NCBI GenBank assembly: GCA_963808235.1
Contig: CAWEEQ010000004.1
Coordinates: forward strand, 192,001-256,000
Length of the DNA stretch: 64,000 nucleotides
Origin: an uncultured delta proteobacterium
GTDB lineage: Bacteria > Desulfobacterota > Binatia > Binatales > Binataceae
Reading direction: 5' to 3'
A program made the position numbers and the translations under genes. This document shows positions 3,712 through 26,895 of the stretch, piece by piece; the first letter of the stretch is position 1, and each line of letters starts with the position of its first letter. The notes beneath the pieces were generated by a model. The model did no database searches. It was given only the letters and a program-made list of their open reading frames with translations, and had not been told where the DNA came from.

Positions 3712-5046
3712 ATGGATCAGACGCTTTTTATCATCGGCATAAACCATCGCACAGCCGCGGTCGCGGTTCGTGAACGGTTGGCGTACGCCGAAGATGAAAT
3801 CGTCGCTGCGATCGCGCGCCTTACCGCGGCGGCGCCGGCGGTCGCGGAGGCCGCGCTGATCTCGACCTGCAATCGGGTCGAAGTGATGGGAGTGGCTGCG
3901 GATCCGGCGCGAGCCGCCGAGGAGACGCTCAAGTTCCTGGCGGAGGATCGTAGCATCGAACAGACGGTCTTCAACGATGCGGTCTACAGTTTCGCCGGAC
4001 GCGAGGCGGCGCGTCACATGTTCCGCGTCGGCGCGAGTCTCGATTCGATGGTCGTCGGCGAGCCGCAAATCCTCGGACAACTGAAGCTCGCGTATGCGCA
4101 GGCGTCCGAGGCGCGCACGGTCGGCCTGGTGCTGCATCGTGCTTTCCACAAGGCCTTTACGGTTGCCAAGCGCGTTCGCAAGGGGACGCTTATCGGACAC
4201 GGCTCGGTGTCGGTCAGCAGCGCGGCGGTCAGCCTTGCGGGACAGATTTTCGACACCTTGAAAGACAAGACCGTGATGCTGATGGGTGCGGGCAAGATGG
4301 CGGAGTTGACCGCGCGGCAGCTGAGCGCGCTCGGAATCGAGTCGCTGCTGATAACCTCGCGAACTTTCGATCGCGCGGTCGCGCTCGCTCGCGAGCTTGG
4401 CGGAACCGCGGTGCCGTACGAGAACTACAAGCCGTATCTGAAAATGGTCGACGTGCTGATCGGATCGGTCTCGTCGACGCGGCCGGTGCTGGGGCCCGAC
4501 GATTTCGAAACGGTGGTTCGCGAGCGTCGCTACCGGCCGATGTTTCTGATCGACATGGGCGTGCCGCGCAATTTTGACGAGCGGCTGAACGCGATGCAGA
4601 ACGTTTATTTGTACGACATCGACGATCTCGGCGCGCTGGTGAATCGCTCGCTCGGCGATCGCGAACGCGAAGCCGAAAAGGCCGAGCAGATCGTCGAGCT
4701 CGAACTCGAATCGTTTCTGAAATGGCTCGACGGCCTCGACCTGACGCCGACCATCAAGGACATACGCTACAGTATCGAGCGGCTGCGCGACGTCGAGATG
4801 GGGCGGCATCGCGGATGGCTGGCGCAACTCGAGCCGGCCGAGCGCGAGCGGGTGGAGTTGCTGACTCGAGGGCTGACCAACAAATTGTTGCATCGCATTT
4901 TGTCCGGGCTTAAGCAGCGCGACGACCAAACGCTCGACGCGGCCTTTGCCGCCGAAGTCGCGCGCCGCTTGCTGGGCGCGGAGTCCGACGCGCAAGACGC
5001 GGAACTCGATGACGCCGATGGCGACGAAGAAGACGACGTTGAGTAG
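3712..5046 (+). CDS. hemA: Glutamyl-tRNA reductase
   Basis: STCNRVE, SLDSMVVGEPQILGQ, GAGKM, DMGVPRN motifs. Confidence 0.97.
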   Translation: MDQTLFIIGINHRTAAVAVRERLAYAEDEIVAAIARLTAAAPAVAEAALISTCNRVEVMGVAADPARAAEETLKFLAEDRSIEQTVFNDAVYSFAGREAARHMFRVGASLDSMVVGEPQILGQLKLAYAQASEARTVGLVLHRAFHKAFTVAKRVRKGTLIGHGSVSVSSAAVSLAGQIFDTLKDKTVMLMGAGKMAELTARQLSALGIESLLITSRTFDRAVALARELGGTAVPYENYKPYLKMVDVLIGSVSSTRPVLGPDDFETVVRERRYRPMFLIDMGVPRNFDERLNAMQNVYLYDIDDLGALVNRSLGDREREAEKAEQIVELELESFLKWLDGLDLTPTIKDIRYSIERLRDVEMGRHRGWLAQLEPAERERVELLTRGLTNKLLHRILSGLKQRDDQTLDAAFAAEVARRLLGAESDAQDAELDDADGDEEDDVE

Positions 5047-5087
5047 GCCCGCGGCGCGCGCAAACGCTGATGGCAATCTGAACGCGG

Positions 5088-7628
5088 ATGGCGCTCCTGC
5101 CAAAGCATAAAATCAAAATTGGTTCGCGACCGAGCAAGCTCGCGTTGGCTCAGGCGGCGATCGTGCGCGCCCGGCTGTCGGCGCAGATTCCGGGAGTCGA
5201 AATCGAAATTGTCGAGATTCGCACCAGCGGCGACAAGCTGACCACCCCGTCGCTCGCGCAAATCGGCGGCAAGGGACTCTTTATCAAAGAACTCGAACAG
5301 GCTCTCGCAGAGCGACAAATCGATATCGCGGTTCATTCGATGAAGGATCTTCCCGCCGTCCTCGCACCTCAATTCCGCGTGAGGTGCGTGGTGGAGCGCG
5401 AGAATACCGCCGACGTGCTGGTGACGCGCGACGGCGCCGCGCTCGCGGACCTGCCGGCGGGCACGAAGCTCGGGACCTCGTCGTCGCGTCGCCGCTTCCA
5501 GGCTCTTCGCGTGAATCGTGGACTCGAAATTGTACCGTTGCGCGGCAACGTCGATACGCGGCTCGGGCGCGTCGCCGACGGGAGCCTCGATGCGATCATA
5601 GTTGCGATGGCGGGATTGAAACGCCTCGGACGCATCGGCGATGTGAAGTTCGTCGAGCTTGATGCGCGCGATTTCATTCCCTCCGGTGCGCAGGGCGCTC
5701 TCGCGATCGAGACGCTCGCCGATCGAAGCGCCGGCGGGGCGAAGGAGATAGATGATGCGCTCGACGCGATCAACGATACGCGCGCATTTTACGAGACCGC
5801 GGCCGAGCGTGCGTTCCTGGCTGCAATCGACGCGTCGTGCACGACGCCGGTCGGAGTGCGGGCGACCGTCGATTCGACGACGCTCGCGATGCGCGCAATC
5901 CTGTTCAGCCCCGACGGCGCACGCGAACTCTCCGAATCGATCGAAGGTCCGCCCAATCTAAAACTTGGCACCTCGTCTGCGGAGAGCATCGGGAAAAAAC
6001 TCGCAGAAAAAATGCTCGCGCGCGGCGCGGCCGCGATGCTTCGACCCTTGATGAAGGCGCGGGGCAGGCGGGAGCATCGGGACGGAGATGAGCGCCAGGG
6101 CAAGGTTATCCTGGTCGGCGCTGGTCCTGGCGCACCAGACCTGATTGCGATTCGCGGCGCCGACGCTCTCAGCCGCGCCGACGTTGTGATCTACGACTAT
6201 CTGGTGAGCCCCGAATTGCTGCGCCTGGCGCCGCGGAACGCAGAGCTGATTTACGCGGGCAAGAAAGGCGGCTCGGACAAGGCGATCGAGCAATCGGAAT
6301 TGAACGCGATGCTGATCGCACACGCGCGCAAGGGGCGGCGCGTGATTCGGCTCAAGGGCGGCGACCCGTTTATTTTCGGCCGCGGCGGCGAGGAAGCGGA
6401 AGCGCTCGCCCGCGCGAAAGTGAAATTCGAAGTCGTGCCCGGAGTCACGTCGGCAATCGCGGGGCCGGCGTTCGCCGGAATTCCGCTGACGCATCGCGAG
6501 CACGGTTCATTCGTGGCGTTTGTCACCGGCCATGAAGACGAGCGCAAAGGCGGCCAGTCGGCAATCCCGTGGAAGCATCTTGCGGCGGCTGCGAAGGATC
6601 GCGGCACGATCGTAATCTTGATGGCGACGGCGCGGATGCGGGCGACGCTACAACGGTTAAGCGACGCGGGGCTGCCGCAAGAGACTCCGGCTGCGGCAGT
6701 AGAATGGGCGACCACCGCGGCGCAGCGAACAGTGCTCGCGACGTTGGGCACCCTTGCCGACGCATGCGAGCGCGACAGCGTCGGTGCGCCGGCGGTGCTC
6801 GTGGTCGGAGAGTGCGCGGGCCTGCGCGAGCATCTCAAATGGGCCGAGAAGATGCCGCTGTTCGGCCGAACGATAGTGGTTACCCGGGCGCGTGGTGCAA
6901 GTTCCGACTTCGCGACGGATCTGCGGCGGCTCGGCGCCGACGCAATCGAATTCCCGACGATCGAGATGGCGCCGCCGAAAAGTTTCGCGGCGCTCGACAA
7001 GGCGATCGCGCAGCTGGATTCGTTCGACTGGATAATTTTCACCAGCGCAAGCGGGGTCGAAAGTTTCCTCGAGCGGCTTAAGTCGCTCGGCCGCGATATT
7101 CGCAGCCTCGGCCGTGCTTCGATCGCCGCGATCGGGCCCGCAACCGCCTCGCGGCTACAAGACTATGCGCTCCGAGTCGCGGCGGTTCCGGACGAGTATC
7201 GCGCGGAGGCGATTATTTCCGCGATCGGCGCGAAGCGGATTAGCGGCAAGCGTTTTCTGATTCCGCGCGCCGAAGTCGCGCGTGAAATACTGCCTGAGAC
7301 GCTGCGTGCGAAAGGCGCCAAACAGGTCGAGGTCGCGCCCGCGTATCGAACCGTCAAGCCCCGGCGCGCGCATGTCGAGCGAATGCGCGAATTGATCGCG
7401 GCGGGCGCAATCGACCTGGTGACGTTCACCAGTTCGAGCACGGTTACGAACTTTTGCGACCTGCTCGGCGAATCGGCGAAGGGACTCAAGGCGGCGGCGA
7501 TCGGCCCGATAACTTCGGCGACTGCGGCCGAGCGCGGATTCGAGGTGGTCGTCAGGCCCGATGAATATACGATTCCCGCTCTGACCGAGGCGATTTGCGA
7601 GTTTTTCGCACGCCCGCCGAAATCGTGA
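5088..7628 (+). CDS. hemC: Single ORF: porphobilinogen deaminase + uroporphyrinogen-III methyltransferase + uroporphyrinogen-III synthase (HemC-CobA-HemD)
   Basis: HemC motifs GSRPSKLALAQ, GGKGLF, VHSMKD, RGNVDTRL; CobA motifs LVGAGPG, RLKGGDPFIFGRGGEE; HemD motifs VTRAR, FTSASGV, FTSSSTV. The fusion junction near 6040-6100 may be an indel artefact. Confidence 0.9.
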   Translation: MALLPKHKIKIGSRPSKLALAQAAIVRARLSAQIPGVEIEIVEIRTSGDKLTTPSLAQIGGKGLFIKELEQALAERQIDIAVHSMKDLPAVLAPQFRVRCVVERENTADVLVTRDGAALADLPAGTKLGTSSSRRRFQALRVNRGLEIVPLRGNVDTRLGRVADGSLDAIIVAMAGLKRLGRIGDVKFVELDARDFIPSGAQGALAIETLADRSAGGAKEIDDALDAINDTRAFYETAAERAFLAAIDASCTTPVGVRATVDSTTLAMRAILFSPDGARELSESIEGPPNLKLGTSSAESIGKKLAEKMLARGAAAMLRPLMKARGRREHRDGDERQGKVILVGAGPGAPDLIAIRGADALSRADVVIYDYLVSPELLRLAPRNAELIYAGKKGGSDKAIEQSELNAMLIAHARKGRRVIRLKGGDPFIFGRGGEEAEALARAKVKFEVVPGVTSAIAGPAFAGIPLTHREHGSFVAFVTGHEDERKGGQSAIPWKHLAAAAKDRGTIVILMATARMRATLQRLSDAGLPQETPAAAVEWATTAAQRTVLATLGTLADACERDSVGAPAVLVVGECAGLREHLKWAEKMPLFGRTIVVTRARGASSDFATDLRRLGADAIEFPTIEMAPPKSFAALDKAIAQLDSFDWIIFTSASGVESFLERLKSLGRDIRSLGRASIAAIGPATASRLQDYALRVAAVPDEYRAEAIISAIGAKRISGKRFLIPRAEVAREILPETLRAKGAKQVEVAPAYRTVKPRRAHVERMRELIAAGAIDLVTFTSSSTVTNFCDLLGESAKGLKAAAIGPITSATAAERGFEVVVRPDEYTIPALTEAICEFFARPPKS

Positions 7629-21838: not shown

Positions 21839-22273
21839 TCAATCGTTTGGCACTGCGGCCTGCCGGATTGAGTTGAGAACGAATATGAAATGCTGATGAG
21901 ACGATACGTTAGCGAGCAAGCTCACCTGCTTCAGGAGCTTTAGCTCGGCGCGTGTTACGCGGTGACGCCTGATAAGTGCCCTATCTGAGGCAAACCGCTT
22001 CCACGAATCGGTGGCTTTCGTCGAGCCAGGCTCTGCTTGAGTGCCGACCAGGTACTTTGATTCCGGGTGACAGAGAAAGAGCAATTCGCGCCGATCGAGT
22101 CCGAGCGCATCGGCAATCCGTCCCACCAGCGAAAGCGAAGGTCTCCGCTTACCGGTTTCGATATAAGCGATATGGCTGGCCTGAACGCCGATCTGTTTAC
22201 CGAGTTCACGCTGGGTCATCCCGAGTTCCCGGCGCGCTTGTTTCAACATTCCGCGGAGCGTCTTCCCGCTCAT
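21839..22273 (-). CDS. XRE-family HTH transcriptional regulator with C-terminal extension
   Basis: LKQARRELGMTQRELGKQIGVQASHIAYIETGKRRPS; ATGA overlap with the upstream peptidase gene. Confidence 0.92.
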   Translation of the reverse strand: MSGKTLRGMLKQARRELGMTQRELGKQIGVQASHIAYIETGKRRPSLSLVGRIADALGLDRRELLFLCHPESKYLVGTQAEPGSTKATDSWKRFASDRALIRRHRVTRAELKLLKQVSLLANVSSHQHFIFVLNSIRQAAVPND

Positions 22274-23076
22274 ATTCCGTACTCGCTAAGTAGTGCCGCG
22301 CGCAGTTTCGCCGTGTGAATCATACCTGCCACAACCTGCAAGTTTTCGGCCGCCCCGACTTGCGCTTCGAAATCGAAGCCCAGGCCGGAACACAGGTGAC
22401 GCTTCGCCCTCGGAACTAGCTGCAATATATCCGCATCCGCATCTCTTTTTTGAGAGCCATTGAAGAGCCGTTCCGCGACTGTTTTTGGATATCCTCCCAA
22501 CGCCAATACGATATCTGCAACCAGTTCCTCCGGATCGCTCAGATGATTCAGGTAATTATCGGCGGACGACATATTCAGCCGCTCGCCATGGCCGCCAAAA
22601 ATATCATGGGTGAGATGATGTCCCATCTCGTGCCAGAACGCGGCCGCGACTAGCACCCGGTGATGTACCGTATTGACGCATATGACCGGCTTTTTCAGTA
22701 GTCTTCCGCCGCCGTCGTTGACGTAGAACCCCCGCAGCGTACGACCCTCTCGGCCTTCGAACGTTCCGAGCTGCAACACCGCGCCGAAGCTCGCCGCAGT
22801 CTCGGTCAACCGAGCCAGGTCGGTTTCTCCGAACAGCCGCTGATTCAGCTCCGGCAGGAAGTGCCGCAACTCCGAAATGATTCCTTGAAGTTGGGGCCGG
22901 TCGAAGTGGCTCTGCAATGCCGCGGGATAATCGACTCGAGAAAAAGACGAAAAGTCTTCGCAAGCACGGTCGGCCGTTCGCTGCTCGGCTCGTGATTGCG
23001 AGCGATTCACGATCTCGCGGATCAGTCCTTCGAGCGGATCGGGTTCTCTGTCTTGCGCCACCGTTGGCCACCCCAA
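22270..23076 (-). CDS. ImmA/IrrE-family (M78-like) zinc metallopeptidase
   Basis: RGFY...ICVN...FWHEMGHH (HExxH) followed by EELVAD; the true start may be the GTG at 23061. Confidence 0.8.
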   Translation of the reverse strand: MGWPTVAQDREPDPLEGLIREIVNRSQSRAEQRTADRACEDFSSFSRVDYPAALQSHFDRPQLQGIISELRHFLPELNQRLFGETDLARLTETAASFGAVLQLGTFEGREGRTLRGFYVNDGGGRLLKKPVICVNTVHHRVLVAAAFWHEMGHHLTHDIFGGHGERLNMSSADNYLNHLSDPEELVADIVLALGGYPKTVAERLFNGSQKRDADADILQLVPRAKRHLCSGLGFDFEAQVGAAENLQVVAGMIHTAKLRAALLSEYGI

Positions 23077-23473
23077 ATTGAGGCCATGCTAATCGCGCCG
23101 ACCGTGGGTTAGCAAGCGCAACAACTACCGCGACTGGGGCGCCGCTGTAAAAAGTAGCCAATTCATACAAATAGCGTTTTGTGGGGGGACCACGGCACAG
23201 CTAAGAGTCTAGTAATTTTCACAAAAAGTGATCCAAGTGTTCACGTCGACCATCGCACGCGCGACAAGCTCTTTTGAGCGTGCGGGCGATCCCCTCCGAC
23301 CGCTCTCTTACCCTCCGAAACCACCCTACGAAATCGTTTCCGCCGGAAACCTGAGATGGGGTGCCTCGTTCGGCAGACCGCCGGCTCGCACCCAGCGCGC
23401 ACCGCCGCGCGTCGCCGTACTCAAGCGACCGCGGTTCGAAGGTCGATAAACGAAGAAAAAACAGGAGAGTCCA

Positions 23474-24199
23474 ATGGAACTGCGTCAACTGACAACTGAT
23501 CATGAGCGGCAAATCTTCGCGGAATGTCTTTCCAAGGCCAGGGCCACGGCTGGATACGGCTTCAGAGAGACCGCGCGCTCGCGGCTCGGAAGGGCGCATC
23601 TCACGTTCGGAAATGTCTATGCGATTTTTGAAAACGAAGGCGACCCGTCCGAGCGGATGGCGGGAGGTTTCATCGTACACGATCTCGCCACCCTTCCCCA
23701 GAGTTTCGCGCAGCCGGACCTGAGTTATCTGCCCCCAAAGTCGGTCATCGAAGGCAGCGAGCTATGGGCGCTTACCAGGGGAGCTGCCGGGGTTGCGAAG
23801 CGAATAGCACCCGCGATCGCCGGTCTTCTACAGGCGAAGGCGGTCGTCCTCTATCCATTCATCAAGCCGTTCGATCTGACCGCACCTCACGCTCAACTCG
23901 GCTTCGTCAATGCCTGCGATCCGATCCAATACCACTTTTGCGAGACCCTCGAGGGAGAAGATCTTTGGGTCCAACCGATGGTTCTGCAGGGCGAGAAACT
24001 CGACGAGTACATCCGGCGCGGATTTGATTACCTCCTCGGCGGCCAGCGCGATCGTCACGTCCTGCGCTTCGATGCGTCTCTCGCGACGACACGTCCGGCG
24101 GCTATCGAGCCTGCGGTCGCTGAAAGAGAAGTGGCCAAGAGTTCGGTTGTCTCCTCGCACGGAGCGGGAGACGAGCGCAACGGTGCGGCGTCGATGTAA
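23474..24199 (+). CDS. Hypothetical protein, GNAT/acyl-synthase (LuxI/FeeM-like) fold suspected
   Basis: SD AGGAGA; VIEGSELW resembles the xxElSRf strand of LuxI/FeeM enzymes; LGF motif-B-like segment. Fold is inferred. Confidence 0.55.
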   Translation: MELRQLTTDHERQIFAECLSKARATAGYGFRETARSRLGRAHLTFGNVYAIFENEGDPSERMAGGFIVHDLATLPQSFAQPDLSYLPPKSVIEGSELWALTRGAAGVAKRIAPAIAGLLQAKAVVLYPFIKPFDLTAPHAQLGFVNACDPIQYHFCETLEGEDLWVQPMVLQGEKLDEYIRRGFDYLLGGQRDRHVLRFDASLATTRPAAIEPAVAEREVAKSSVVSSHGAGDERNGAASM

Positions 24200-24290: not shown

Positions 24291-25250
24291 ATGAATATCG
24301 ACAATCAGGTTGTCCAAGCGGGCGGGACGAGCCCGCAATTGGAGGAGCTGTACGCAACGATTCCCAAGTGGCGGAACCTGCTCGCGGCGGTCAAAGCCGG
24401 CGAGACTGAATTCATGGACGTGCTCGCCAGGATGGGACTCCTCGAGAAGTTCGGTCTATCCACCAGCGCGGTCCATGCGTACCAGGAAATAGAGATTCAC
24501 GCCTTCATTCTGGGAATCGTCTCTGACGACCGATGGGAAGAGATCCAGGCGAAGTCGTTCCTGACCTACGCCTCGCACTGGATCGACGATTTCTTCGATA
24601 GTCCCGGCAAAGTTGGCGATCCCGCACAGTTGATGGCCGATCGAGGCGATATCCGCCACGCGCTTGCCAACATGGGTCCGGTCGGCCAGGTCGGATTTGC
24701 GATGGCGAACCGCGTGCCGCATCCGGAGGCGGTCTACAAAAGCCTGCATCGGATGCTTTATGGAGGCCTGGTGCAGCGATCGCTCGACTATGCGAACCGT
24801 CATACCCTGGTCAAGGAATACCAGACCGTCGCGACGGAGTTCGTCGATTCAGGGCTGGCCCGGCAAATCCTGCAACTGCAACCGCAAGCCTACTGGACCA
24901 CCAACAAAACCGTCCAGGAATTGCTCAACGCCGCCGAGCCGGAGCTCGACTTCAATACTTCGGAGTTGTGGAATCTGGTCTACGCTCCCGCCATCTATTA
25001 CCAGGATCTCGATGAAGAGCGGGCGCGTGGAGAGTCGAACTTTGAAGAGGAAGAGGCCCCGAGGATGAGCGAGATGCTGAAAATGATCCGGCTCGGAGCA
25101 CGGTACCTTGCGCAGACCGGCAAGAAGGGAAGTCTGCAGACTGCGCAGCTACGTTTCGCCGCGCTCGCACTCCCCAACCTGCCGGACCAGATCGTGAGCG
25201 AGTACCGGGTCCTATGGGAAAGACGCGGCGAGGCCGTCTGTTCGGATTAA
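24291..25250 (+). CDS. Class-I isoprenoid synthase/prenyltransferase-fold protein, 319 aa
   Basis: SD AAGGAG; WIDDFFD (DDxxD), YWTTNKT (KT motif), YYQDLDEERARG (second acidic motif); appears all-helical. Confidence 0.65.
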   Translation: MNIDNQVVQAGGTSPQLEELYATIPKWRNLLAAVKAGETEFMDVLARMGLLEKFGLSTSAVHAYQEIEIHAFILGIVSDDRWEEIQAKSFLTYASHWIDDFFDSPGKVGDPAQLMADRGDIRHALANMGPVGQVGFAMANRVPHPEAVYKSLHRMLYGGLVQRSLDYANRHTLVKEYQTVATEFVDSGLARQILQLQPQAYWTTNKTVQELLNAAEPELDFNTSELWNLVYAPAIYYQDLDEERARGESNFEEEEAPRMSEMLKMIRLGARYLAQTGKKGSLQTAQLRFAALALPNLPDQIVSEYRVLWERRGEAVCSD

Positions 25251-25266
25251 TTCGAGGTTCCGGCTC

Positions 25267-25317
25267 ATGAGGTCAATCGTGATCCGGAACAAGGAGGCTT
25301 CTATGCAACACGTTTGA
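25267..25317 (+). CDS. Candidate micro-ORF MRSIVIRNKEASMQHV, with inner start at 25303 giving MQHV
   Basis: GAGGT 8 nt before ATG 25267; perfect AAGGAGG 5 nt before ATG 25303; shared TGA at 25315-25317. Confidence 0.35.
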   Translation: MRSIVIRNKEASMQHV

Positions 25318-25331
25318 CCACCAGAATGCCC

Positions 25332-25360
25332 GCGCGGCGCCTCGAACGAAGGCGCCGCGC
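25332..25360 (+). terminator. GC-rich hairpin without a U-tract; candidate terminator or stabiliser
   Basis: GCGCGGCGCCT-N7-AGGCGCCGCGC. Confidence 0.5.
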
Positions 25361-25463
25361 CGGCTCGGATTCATCTTAAGTCGCGATTTCGTATCGCGAC
25401 ACTGGTTGTGATCTCGCGCGTGAGTCGCTGCATCCCGTACCGATGCCGGATGGCTCAGCGTGA

Positions 25464-25485
25464 TTTGCTTCCAGCCAGCGCTCGG
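25464..25485. repeat. 22-bp direct repeat, copy B (duplicate of the trxB 3' end)
   Basis: TTTGCTTCCAGCCAGCGCTCGG, identical to 25967-25988. Confidence 0.85.
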
Positions 25486-25506
25486 TGCGCTGCGGTAAAC
25501 CCCGCG

Positions 25507-25929
25507 TTAGTTTGCCGAGGCCACGACGATACAGAGCAATGCCAGGAGTAGCGCTACAGGCCCGTTCTGAAACCGCTCCGAACTGCTCGACGAGACGAAG
25601 TTAGCTAGTGCGCTCAGCGCCATCACGCCGGCGAGCGTCCACGTCCCCCAACGCAAGATGCCGAACCGATCGGTCGAAGCCCAATAGCGCGCGCGGCCGA
25701 GGACGATGATAGCGCCGGCGACGAGCAGACCGGCCGCGAACCCGCTAGCGACTCTGAGCGCCACGTTGAGATGGTCGTGACTGCCGCCGCCCCAGGCGCC
25801 GGAGAGTCCCCAAGAGCCGCCAAGCGCCCAGAAAATTTCGAATGTCGCAACTACGATAAAGGCGGTTGCGACCACCGCCGCAGCGAAGCGAGTCGCTCGT
25901 GTAGCGATCATAACGCGGCGGAGCTTCAT
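25507..25929 (-). CDS. DUF3995-like membrane protein
   Basis: FWALGGSWG..AWGG and N..S.S..ER motifs; 4 TM segments. Confidence 0.7.
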   Translation of the reverse strand: MKLRRVMIATRATRFAAAVVATAFIVVATFEIFWALGGSWGLSGAWGGGSHDHLNVALRVASGFAAGLLVAGAIIVLGRARYWASTDRFGILRWGTWTLAGVMALSALANFVSSSSSERFQNGPVALLLALLCIVVASAN

Positions 25930-25956
25930 GCGCGATATCGCGCGACCCGTTGGATG

Positions 25957-26895
25957 CTATTCGCCCTTTGCTTCCAGCCAGCGCTCGGCGTCGATTGCCG
26001 CCATGCATCCCGTGCCCGCCGCGGTGACTGCCTGCCGATATACGCTGTCGGCGACGTCGCCGGCGGCGAACACGCCGTCGATATTGGTGTAGGTCGACCC
26101 GGCGCGCACCCGCAAATATCCGACTTCGTCCATGTCGAGCTGGCCCTTGAAGATCGCGGTATTCGGCTGATGCCCGATCGCGACGAACACCGCGTCGGTC
26201 TTCTGGTCGGTGATTTTCCCGGTCTTCAGATTTTTCAACTTGACGCCGCTCACGCCCAGTTTGGGATCGCCGATGATTTCTTCGATCGCGGAATCCCAGA
26301 TGAACGCGATCTTGGGATTCTTGCGCGCGCGATCCTGCATGATCTTCGACGCGCGCAGCGTGTCGCGGCGATGCACGATCGTCACCTTGGTGCAGAAGCG
26401 GGTCAGGAAGGTCGCTTCTTCCATCGCGGTGTCGCCGCCGCCGATCACAAGCGCTTCCTTCTCCTTAAAGAATGCGCCGTCGCAGGTCGCGCATGCGCTC
26501 ACCCCGTAACCCATCAGGCGCTTTTCCGATTCGATTCCGAGCAGCTTCGCCGACGCTCCGGTTGAAATGATCAGCGACTCGGCCTTGACGACTTTTCCGT
26601 CGGCGACCACCTCGAACGGCCTGGCCTTCAGGCGCGCTTCGGTCACCTCGCCGGCTAGAAAACGGGTGCCGAAGCGAGTCACCTGGCGGCGGAACACGTC
26701 CATCATCTCGGGTCCCTGCACGCCATGCTCGAAGCCCGGATAGTTCTCGACCTCGGTAGTGATGGTGAGCTGTCCACCCGGCTCGTTGCCCTCGATCAGC
26801 AGCGGACTCAAGTTTGCGCGCGCGGTATAGAGCGCGGCAGTCAGTCCGGCGGGACCGGAACCCAGAATCACGACCTTGTTGATTTCGTCAGCCAT
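25957..26895 (-). CDS. trxB: Thioredoxin reductase
   Basis: [41 protein letters not shown]. Confidence 0.97.
25967..25988. repeat. 22-bp direct repeat, copy A (within the trxB 3' end)
   Basis: Identical to 25464-25485. Confidence 0.85.

Follow-up and report, generated by a model that had tools for sequence, protein, structure and literature searches.

A four-codon minigene with conserved translation signals at the 3' end of an enzyme operon from an uncultured Binataceae bacterium

The DNA analyzed here, referred to as the window, is a stretch of 64,000 nucleotides (nt) from contig CAWEEQ010000004.1 of the assembly GCA_963808235.1, which belongs to an uncultured delta proteobacterium of the Binataceae. 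It contains a cassette in which gene A, whose product has an acyltransferase fold, is followed by gene B, whose product has the fold of class I terpenoid synthases and prenyltransferases. Immediately 3' of gene B is a four-codon open reading frame (ORF) with its own Shine-Dalgarno (SD) sequence, which is in turn followed by a GC-rich hairpin that resembles a terminator. This frame, hereafter the minigene, was also found at two homologous loci, L042 and L052, where the SD sequence, start codon, stop codon and their spacing were kept while the codons between them were not. We tentatively interpret the minigene as a translated element that acts in cis. The A-B operon and its 3' end have the following features.

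23474-24199, + strand: gene A, 241 amino acid residues, GNAT-fold acyltransferase resembling FeeM and acyl-homoserine lactone (AHL) synthases, without a Pfam family
24291-25250, + strand: gene B, 319 amino acid residues, class I terpenoid synthase/prenyltransferase alpha-fold, with the invariant residues D99 D100 x x D103
25257-25290, + strand: hairpin 1, with the pairs 25257-63/25284-90 and 25265-70/25277-82, immediately 5' of the SD sequence
25291-25297, + strand: SD sequence AAGGAGG, 5 nt upstream of ATG
25303-25317, + strand: four-codon minigene ATG CAA CAC GTT TGA (MQHV), with ATG at 25303-05 and TGA at 25315-17
25318-25327, + strand: conserved spacer C-CACCAGAAT, 10 nt from the stop codon to the hairpin
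25328-25364, + strand: GC-rich hairpin of the A-B operon that resembles a terminator, with arms 25328-42 and 25350-64 that are 93% complementary
25365-25376, + strand: conserved 3' flank (T/A)CGRATTCAT, from the alignment with L042 and L052
25380-25400, no strand assigned: third hairpin GTCGCGAT-TTCGT-ATCGCGAC, partly retained in L042 and not in L052

The stop codon of gene B is TAA at 25248-50. It is followed by GAGGT at 25254-58 and by an ATG at 25267-69, both of which precede the SD sequence. The latter ATG is in frame with the ATG at 25303, and the joint translation is a peptide of 16 residues, MRSIVIRNKEASMQHV. The 3' end of the 16S rRNA of the same genome is GGATCACCTCCTTTCT, and AAGGAGG is thus a perfect SD sequence of 7 bp, as it is complementary to this end. 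In the minimum free energy fold, the SD sequence was unpaired and was positioned between hairpin 1 and the remainder of the RNA. The + strand of the intergenic RNA of 271 nt folded better than 200 of 200 shuffled sequences (z = -5.2), and the - strand also beat all 200 shuffles (z = -3.5). The next gene 3' of the minigene is convergent (25507-25929) and has a weak Pfam match to DUF3995. An earlier reading of the same DNA, made from the sequence alone, had placed the SD sequence, the minigene, GAGGT and the upstream in-frame ATG exactly to the base. The three hairpins that it described are also real, although the arms of the GC hairpin reach from 25328 to 25364 where 25332-25360 had been given.

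The combination of a strong SD sequence with such a short frame is uncommon in this genome. The two strands of the 4.59-Mb genome together contained 123 AGGAGG-N4-8-ATG sites. Frames of 60 codons or more were opened by 93 of them, which makes the pattern a strong indicator of genuine starts in this genome, and frames of 10 codons or fewer by nine; two of these nine were one repeated sequence. Given that only 9 of the 123 sites open frames of 10 codons or fewer, a strong SD-ATG site within a given spacer of 250 nt is rare, and the SD sequence with its four-codon frame is more than chance. When 165 genomes of the family were searched with the exact minigene pattern and 401 genomes of the class with a looser one, the genome of the window was the sole match in both cases. 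A DNA search of the 401 class genomes with the intergenic element matched the GC hairpin alone. Viral contigs had 0 matches to the minigene pattern and 0 relatives of gene B, and Rfam had no significant match to positions 24800-26000 (best E 0.16, far under the gathering score). A repeat or repetitive extragenic palindromic element was rejected, as the genome has no other copy of the intergenic DNA except for short matches to the GC hairpin. Also rejected were the TTGAC(A) at the stop codon as a -35 box, which had no -10-like hexamer 17 nt downstream and coincided with no hit of the promoter scan, and a five-codon frame with an SD sequence, MRYIF at G000:C4:635651, which is the end of a longer open frame and has no P450 nearby.

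A total of 83 homologous loci were fetched. The stop codon of gene B could be located in 70 of them, and 59 of them had at least 100 nt downstream of gene B. The arrangement AGGAGG-N5-ATG-three codons-TGA was found at an equal offset from gene B in 2 of the 70 loci, L042 and L052, which is also 2 of the 59 assessable ones. The minigene of L042 is ATG CAA TAC ATT TGA (MQYI) and its B is 85% identical to that of the window, while the minigene of L052 is ATG AAG TAC GCT TGA (MKYA) and its B is 66% identical. Similarly, an nhmmer profile of the element matched L042 (E 4.7e-49) and L052 (E 1.5e-39) alone over its full length, and its matches elsewhere among the loci were confined to the hairpin part. 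The fourth carrier is a contig of 595 nt from a public soil run, X1, whose minigene is identical to that of the window (MQHV). Over 24900-25382, X1 had 26 letters that differed from the window and 13 that were gaps, and between 25282 and 25330 there were zero differences, though the 3' end of B was heavily changed. Contig X3 had no difference from the window over 25161-25320, contig X2 spans only 24900-25083, X4 gave no coverage, and 25383-25403 was almost uncovered. No indel was found in the minigene in public runs, with X1 and X3 both spanning the frame. The conservation of the SD sequence and ORF, which had been proposed as a check on homologous loci, held in L042, L052 and X1 and failed in 57 of the 59 assessable loci. 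The module was kept in every close relative that was readable as DNA, namely L042, L052 and the X1 contig.

Within the carriers, AGGAGG was identical at all six positions in L042 and L052, and the interval from the SD sequence to TGA had zero indels in the four sequences. Indels were located in hairpin 1, immediately 3' of TGAC and at the apex of the GC hairpin. The distance from the stop codon to the hairpin was 10 nt in the window, 12 nt in L042 and 11 nt in L052. TTGAC, formed by TGA together with its flanking T and C, was invariant, and so was ACCAGRATGCC. The flank at 25365-25376 was identical to L042 at 10 of 12 positions and to L052 at 8 of 12. The genes beyond the minigene were different at each locus. 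They are the convergent DUF3995-like gene in the window, a convergent frame in L042 that by eye resembles the C-terminus of an alcohol dehydrogenase, and an unrelated + strand gene at a distance of ~245 nt in L052.

The comparison of the window with L052 outlines a block of elevated identity. The identities were 47-50% in the final 45 nt of B, 57-64% in 25251-25295, 75-86% in 25296-25373 and 35-44% past 25374 in a sliding comparison. The fourfold degenerate sites of B were 44.7% identical (n=103), with a random expectation of about 0.34-0.38. The core block, from the SD sequence to 12 nt past the hairpin, was identical at 66 of 82 positions (80%). Given the 80% identity of this block, the 44.7% identity of the fourfold sites of B and the low identities of the flanks, the core block is an island of constraint.

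Inside this block, the substitutions were unevenly distributed. Counted on the tree ((window, L042), L052), the 27-nt module had nine substitutions. The 15 free positions took all of them, and the 12 positions that make up AGGAGG, ATG and TGA took none (P = 0.005). When the SD positions were left out, the same test gave P = 0.048. The SD, ATG and TGA positions had been named in the sequence-only reading ahead of the inspection of the relatives. Codons 2-4 of the window and L052 were identical at 5 of 9 nt, most of the codon changes were at codon positions 1 and 2, and all three residues other than Met differed (MQHV vs MKYA). The divergence of codons 2-4 appears neutral-like, although the number of sites is very small. 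Among these few sequences, the initiation and termination signals and their spacing appear to be constrained and the peptide does not. A free tree search of B did not group L052 with the window and L042. The tree constrained to keep the three in one clade had the better log likelihood (lnL +6.13) and was not rejected in the approximately unbiased test (p-AU 0.60), and a single origin of the minigene is consistent with the data.

Frames other than the four codons did not hold among the relatives. The 16-residue peptide that had been proposed as one possible product, MRSIVIRNKEASMQHV, was rejected, as its frame is broken in all three. At the corresponding position L042 reads ATG GGG TCG TAA, a 1-nt deletion in X1 yields ATG AGG TCA CCG TAA, and L052 has no ATG (GTG...TAA). 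Read-through of TGA into a longer frame was rejected as well, given the indels of 2 nt in L042 and 1 nt in L052 past TGA. It was also considered whether L011, L015 and L047 had lost the minigene by deletion. The six-way alignment gave unrelated spacers of similar length, and no claim is made of it. The last ~25 codons of B (25178-25243) are hypervariable. Here X1, which is ~92% identical overall, differs by 16 substitutions and by two 1-nt indels that compensate each other, and the 49 non-coding nt after this hypervariable end are identical.

The hairpins differed in their conservation. Hairpin 1 varied, with substitutions and a 1-nt deletion (X1 contig, L042), and could not be aligned in L052. 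The GC hairpin had a variable apex with indels in L042, L052 and X1. Its base, GCGCGGC...GCCGCGC, was found no more than 160 nt from the stop codon of B in 47 of the 59 loci when at most one mismatch per arm was allowed, and the inner stems of this cassette hairpin differed between loci and co-varied. A related motif, GGCGCGGC...GCCGCGCC, had four matches in the genome of the window vs 8 and 6 for the controls, and the cassette hairpin was not among them. Given that this motif has only four matches in the genome, the cassette hairpin is not a genome-wide repeat. We infer that the GC hairpin serves as a terminator and that this putative terminator belongs to the cassette. The convergent DUF3995 gene may be terminated by the third hairpin.

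Further pairings were found around the minigene. When the RNAs were cut before the 3' arm of the GC hairpin, the pairing differed at each locus and two of three folded no better than shuffles. Possible compensatory pairs are U25313-A25325, which is C-G in L052, and CGGA/TCCG, which is replaced by CGAA/TTCG. In addition, UUCGAG (25251-25256) can pair with CUCGGA (25365-25370), and hairpin 1, the minigene and the terminator would then lie inside this helix. In L042 the two sides are UUCGUG/CACGGA, a two-sided change that preserves the pairing, X1 has A25255>C with no change of the partner, and L052 does not fit.

Upstream of gene A, the cassette has two further genes on the opposite strand and a long leader.

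21839-22273, - strand: XRE-family HTH regulator (Pfam HTH_3, E 1.7e-15), first gene of the divergent pair
22270-23076, - strand: HExGHH metallopeptidase-like protein, weakly ImmA/IrrE (M78)-like, overlapping the HTH gene by 4 nt
23077-23473, + strand: promoter region between the divergent genes, with the long 5' leader of gene A, from an alignment of 12 loci

The cassette is a conserved accessory unit of four genes (XRE HTH, HExGHH protein, A and B) whose 3' border is right after the minigene. No convincing terminal repeats of the cassette were found. It was found in dozens of Binatia-like loci from metagenome-assembled genomes (MAGs) and metagenomes, in varied genomic contexts. A was directly 5' of B in 67 of the 83 loci, and the remaining 16 were mostly contigs that begin inside or just before B, or distant relatives with 43-49% identity. 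In tblastn searches of the homologous loci, the XRE HTH regulator gave 47 rows and the HExGHH protein 56 rows of high-scoring segment pairs (rows, not loci). The genes past B were not conserved among the loci. Gene B was not found in the 24 genomes of the same genus or the 16 other genomes of the class that were searched.

Neither A nor B belongs to a Pfam or NCBIfam family. Their homologs number in the hundreds and are all labelled hypothetical, and the few named ones come from Binataceae or Binatales MAGs. The closest relatives of B are P0002 (88%), P0003 (87%), P0004 (87%) and P0005 (83%). AlphaFold (AF2) models built on alignments of 35 sequences were confident, with pLDDT values of 81.5 for the product of gene A and 88 for that of gene B. 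In Foldseek, the A model matched 165 PDB chains at E <= 0.001, and the rows listed were GNAT-superfamily proteins. The matches include the N-acyl amino acid synthase FeeM (2g0b, TMq 0.50), AHL synthases and N-terminal acetyltransferases, and the ESM atlas lead for A was also to FeeM/GNAT clusters. The labels that the sequence-only reading gave to the two enzymes thus hold at the level of the fold, A having a GNAT fold and B a class I terpenoid synthase/prenyltransferase fold. Searches of PDB sequences with profiles of A and B gave no match, and the profile of the HExxH protein gave weak, unrelated matches. For the HExGHH protein, H149, E150, G152, H153 and H154 were invariant in 19 homologs, of which 7 weakly matched Peptidase_M78/IrrE (PF06114, best E 4.4e-4) and 12 matched Peptidase_M50B (best E 0.0019). 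The protein of the window itself had no Pfam match.

The leader of gene A contains conserved blocks in the 12 loci, including GTTAGCAAG near the start of the peptidase-like gene and GATATTGACAAAAAGTG, a promoter-like box similar to TTGACA. It also has an anti-SD-like motif, GCGCNCC(T/G)CC, ~70 nt before the GGAG SD sequence of gene A. Rfam had no match to 23000-23520 at E values up to 10. Judging from these blocks, the 400-nt leader may be a cis-regulatory one. A pairing of the SD sequence of the minigene with the CCTCC motif of this leader was rejected, as it would comprise only 5 bp and the window itself has CCGCC.

Several relatives of the cassette genes were found elsewhere. The genome of the window contains two paralogous modules, L110 (G000:C4:982500-991500) and L111 (G000:C4:3480500-3489500), each with an HExxH protein gene and a divergent gene for an A-like GNAT that is 38-45% identical to A. 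In both, a membrane protein that resembles fatty acid desaturases, with His-box motifs recognized by eye, replaces B, and the copy in L110 appears to be split across two frames. A truncated second copy of B is located in L112 at 2415-2954 (G000:C1:154414-154953). It is 82% identical over residues 21-105, reaches the DDFFD motif and is unrelated from there on, and is probably what remains of a gene. Finally, the cassette of a neighboring clade is found upstream of trpE/trpG in L014 (~4990-5232), and also in L016, L017, L021 and L036. The B hairpin of this clade is followed by TTGACA-17 nt-GATACT and by MNRCTIGKAWADWRWN, a short ORF that contains three Trp codons; the arrangement resembles a Binatia trp leader peptide with an attenuator.

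The reading that we favor, as a possibility rather than as a probability, is that the minigene is translated and acts in cis at the 3' terminus of the A-B operon, where it would tune termination and/or the stability of the message. The four-codon frame fits within one ribosome footprint and ends a footprint edge short of the foot of the hairpin, and an initiating ribosome would sit against the 5' foot of the GC hairpin, where it would probably re-initiate repeatedly. What is selected would be the act of translation, or the occupancy by the ribosome, and not the peptide. This would likely alter how efficiently transcription terminates and/or how stable the A-B message is at its 3' end. Alternatively, the element might act on a short transcript that consists of hairpin, SD sequence, ORF and hairpin. 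The sequence, its rarity, its conservation and its substitution pattern are observed, and translation of the frame, termination at the hairpin and an effect on the message are proposed here. The suggestion in the sequence-only reading that the frame is a regulatory micro-ORF in a structured RNA fits the invariant SD sequence, ATG, TGA and spacing and the free codons.

Several points weigh against a translated cis-acting minigene. The GC hairpin has no U-tract and is absent from the list of a simple terminator scan. A search for an antiterminator found no consistent alternative structure common to the window, L042 and L052, and a switch like that of mcc is not demonstrated because no such structure is common to the three loci. 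As the minigene is missing from 57 of the 59 assessable cassettes, it is dispensable for the operon. The statistics rest on four sequences, about two independent deep comparisons and nine substitutions, and the invariant TTGAC could reflect a signal at the nucleotide level that is unrelated to translation. Moreover, the literature searched described no minigene that lies at an operon's 3' end directly against a terminator, so that the mechanism is argued by analogy only.

A serious rival explanation, which we nevertheless consider rather unlikely, is that the whole block acts as a conserved RNA or DNA element that is not translated and in which the four-codon frame is incidental. Candidates are a small RNA derived from the 3' untranslated region (UTR) and ending at the operon terminator, an SD-like stabilizer that binds the 30S subunit, and a site for protein binding or processing. 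Such an element would account for the 80% identity of the entire block from the SD sequence to 12 nt past the hairpin, which extends beyond the signals of the ORF, and for the invariance of TTGAC and ACCAGRATGCC, which has no coding reason. The strong structure of the region (z = -5.2) and the two possible compensatory pairs in the comparison with L052 point in the same direction, and the constraint on ATG and TGA is marginal once the SD positions are excluded (P = 0.048). However, it would leave unexplained that the 12 positions of the SD sequence, start and stop codons and the 5-nt spacing are invariant while all nine substitutions are in their 15 neighbors (P = 0.005). No consensus structure around the SD sequence is common to the three loci, the proposed helices are of 4 bp only, and Rfam has no match at E < 0.1.

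The element may also have no function and be either the product of a recent exchange between lineages or the decaying start of a lost third gene, which we regard as improbable. The carriers are limited to three loci and one run contig, and the free tree search did not place L052 with the window and L042. In addition, the cassette is accessory (B in 0 of 24 genomes of the same genus) and its context differs at every locus, so that it is mobile. A recent exchange would, however, need breakpoints tightly around an island of ~85 nt, given the identities of 47-50% upstream and 35-44% downstream. A gene remnant would not let its codons drift and yet retain the SD sequence, ATG, TGA and spacing, no longer gene starts at the minigene in any relative, and the downstream ORF of the neighboring clade is an unrelated trp leader positioned after the hairpin. 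That the tetrapeptide itself, M-[QK]-[HY]-[VIA] (fMet/Met-Gln-His-Val in the window), is the product, either as a substrate acylated by A and/or prenylated by B or as a small signal peptide, is very improbable. Its position next to two enzyme genes had led the sequence-only reading to propose a substrate of A and B resembling a peptide that is made by the ribosome and modified after translation (RiPP). This is unlikely, given that A-B is found in 67 of 83 loci and the minigene in 2 of 59, and that all the residues other than Met have changed. With the minigene in only 2 of 59 A-B loci, enzymes that are 50-70% identical work elsewhere without it, which speaks against an obligate substrate. The neutral-like divergence of the codons, mostly at positions 1 and 2, also argues against a peptide product. 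The paralogous GNAT and desaturase-like modules of the same genome point to lipid or small-molecule chemistry, and the Pfam scan of the neighbors found no transporter, protease or P450.

Four-codon frames are invisible to gene callers and usually dismissed as noise. The substitution pattern reported here is direct comparative evidence, from few sequences, that suggests selection on the translation signals and not on the codons. If the parking of a ribosome tunes termination or 3'-end stability, the minigene would amount to an expression element that is both compact and portable. Were the tetrapeptide the product after all, it would be a precursor shorter than the five-residue one of the biarylitides, made in excess from a mini-message stabilized by hairpins; its acylation or prenylation on His/Tyr or the N-terminus by A and B is, however, hardly to be expected. 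The widespread and uncharacterized Binatia cassette with its XRE, HExxH, GNAT and terpenoid-synthase-fold genes merits its own study.

Among known systems, the biarylitide precursor gene bytA encodes 5 residues in 18 bp, and such precursors are described as the smallest reported for RiPPs (PMC13417212, PMC12951456). Similar to bytA, the minigene is a minimal ORF that escapes annotation, adjoins the gene of a possible tailoring enzyme and has an aromatic or His residue in its core. The minigene differs from it in that every core position varies and in that most homologous enzyme pairs lack the ORF. Biarylitide genes have a conserved core and co-occur with a P450, whereas none was found in the Pfam scan of six neighboring proteins. 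In the ComQXPA quorum-sensing system, ComX is roughly 50-70 residues in length, carries a modification on Trp and occurs together with comP and comA. The position of a small ORF immediately 3' of a gene for an isoprenoid-synthase-fold enzyme is shared with comQ-comX, which had been cited as a precedent in the sequence-only reading. The analogy does not extend further, as the peptide has 4 residues and no Trp, the scanned neighbors are an XRE regulator, the HExxH protein, DUF3995 and TrxR with no comP or comA, and the ORF is not conserved together with the enzyme. Similar to attenuators of the trpL type, a short ORF precedes a terminator hairpin. Attenuators, however, precede the genes that they control and use antiterminator pairings, whereas convergent or unrelated genes (three contexts) are downstream of the minigene and no alternative pairing is shared.

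The lambda bar minigenes are mini-ORFs of a few codons with SD sequences, which act in cis via translation and are located in leaders upstream of the regulated cistron. For mg2, a two-codon minigene of axe-txe, an action in cis, possibly by protection of the mRNA, is reported (PMC8708949). The minigene is likewise a mini-ORF of few codons that bears an SD sequence, and by analogy it may act in cis through translation. It differs in that mg2 is in a leader, where its frame and distance to the regulated cistron matter, whereas only the terminator is conserved downstream of the minigene. According to two further reports, ribosomes translating very short ORFs can do so reiteratively and are not released (PMC6495379), and the binding of ribosomes to the seven-codon ORF of mccA induces adjacent intrinsic termination and yields a very stable RNA (PMC4231749). 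The minigene shares with mccA a tiny ORF with its own SD sequence and a terminator hairpin directly after it, 10-12 nt past TGA in the three loci. In contrast, mccA of the E. coli microcin C operon has seven codons, precedes the biosynthetic genes on their 5' side with partial read-through into them, and specifies the conserved peptide on which MccB acts, whereas the minigene has four codons, is 3' of the enzyme genes, encodes a variable peptide and has neither a gene for an MccB-like adenylating enzyme nor a conserved downstream gene. If the reading of a translated cis-acting minigene is correct, the logic of mccA and axe-txe would extend to 3' UTRs, and the minigene would, by analogy, be an element of a known kind in an unusual position, the 3' end of an operon.

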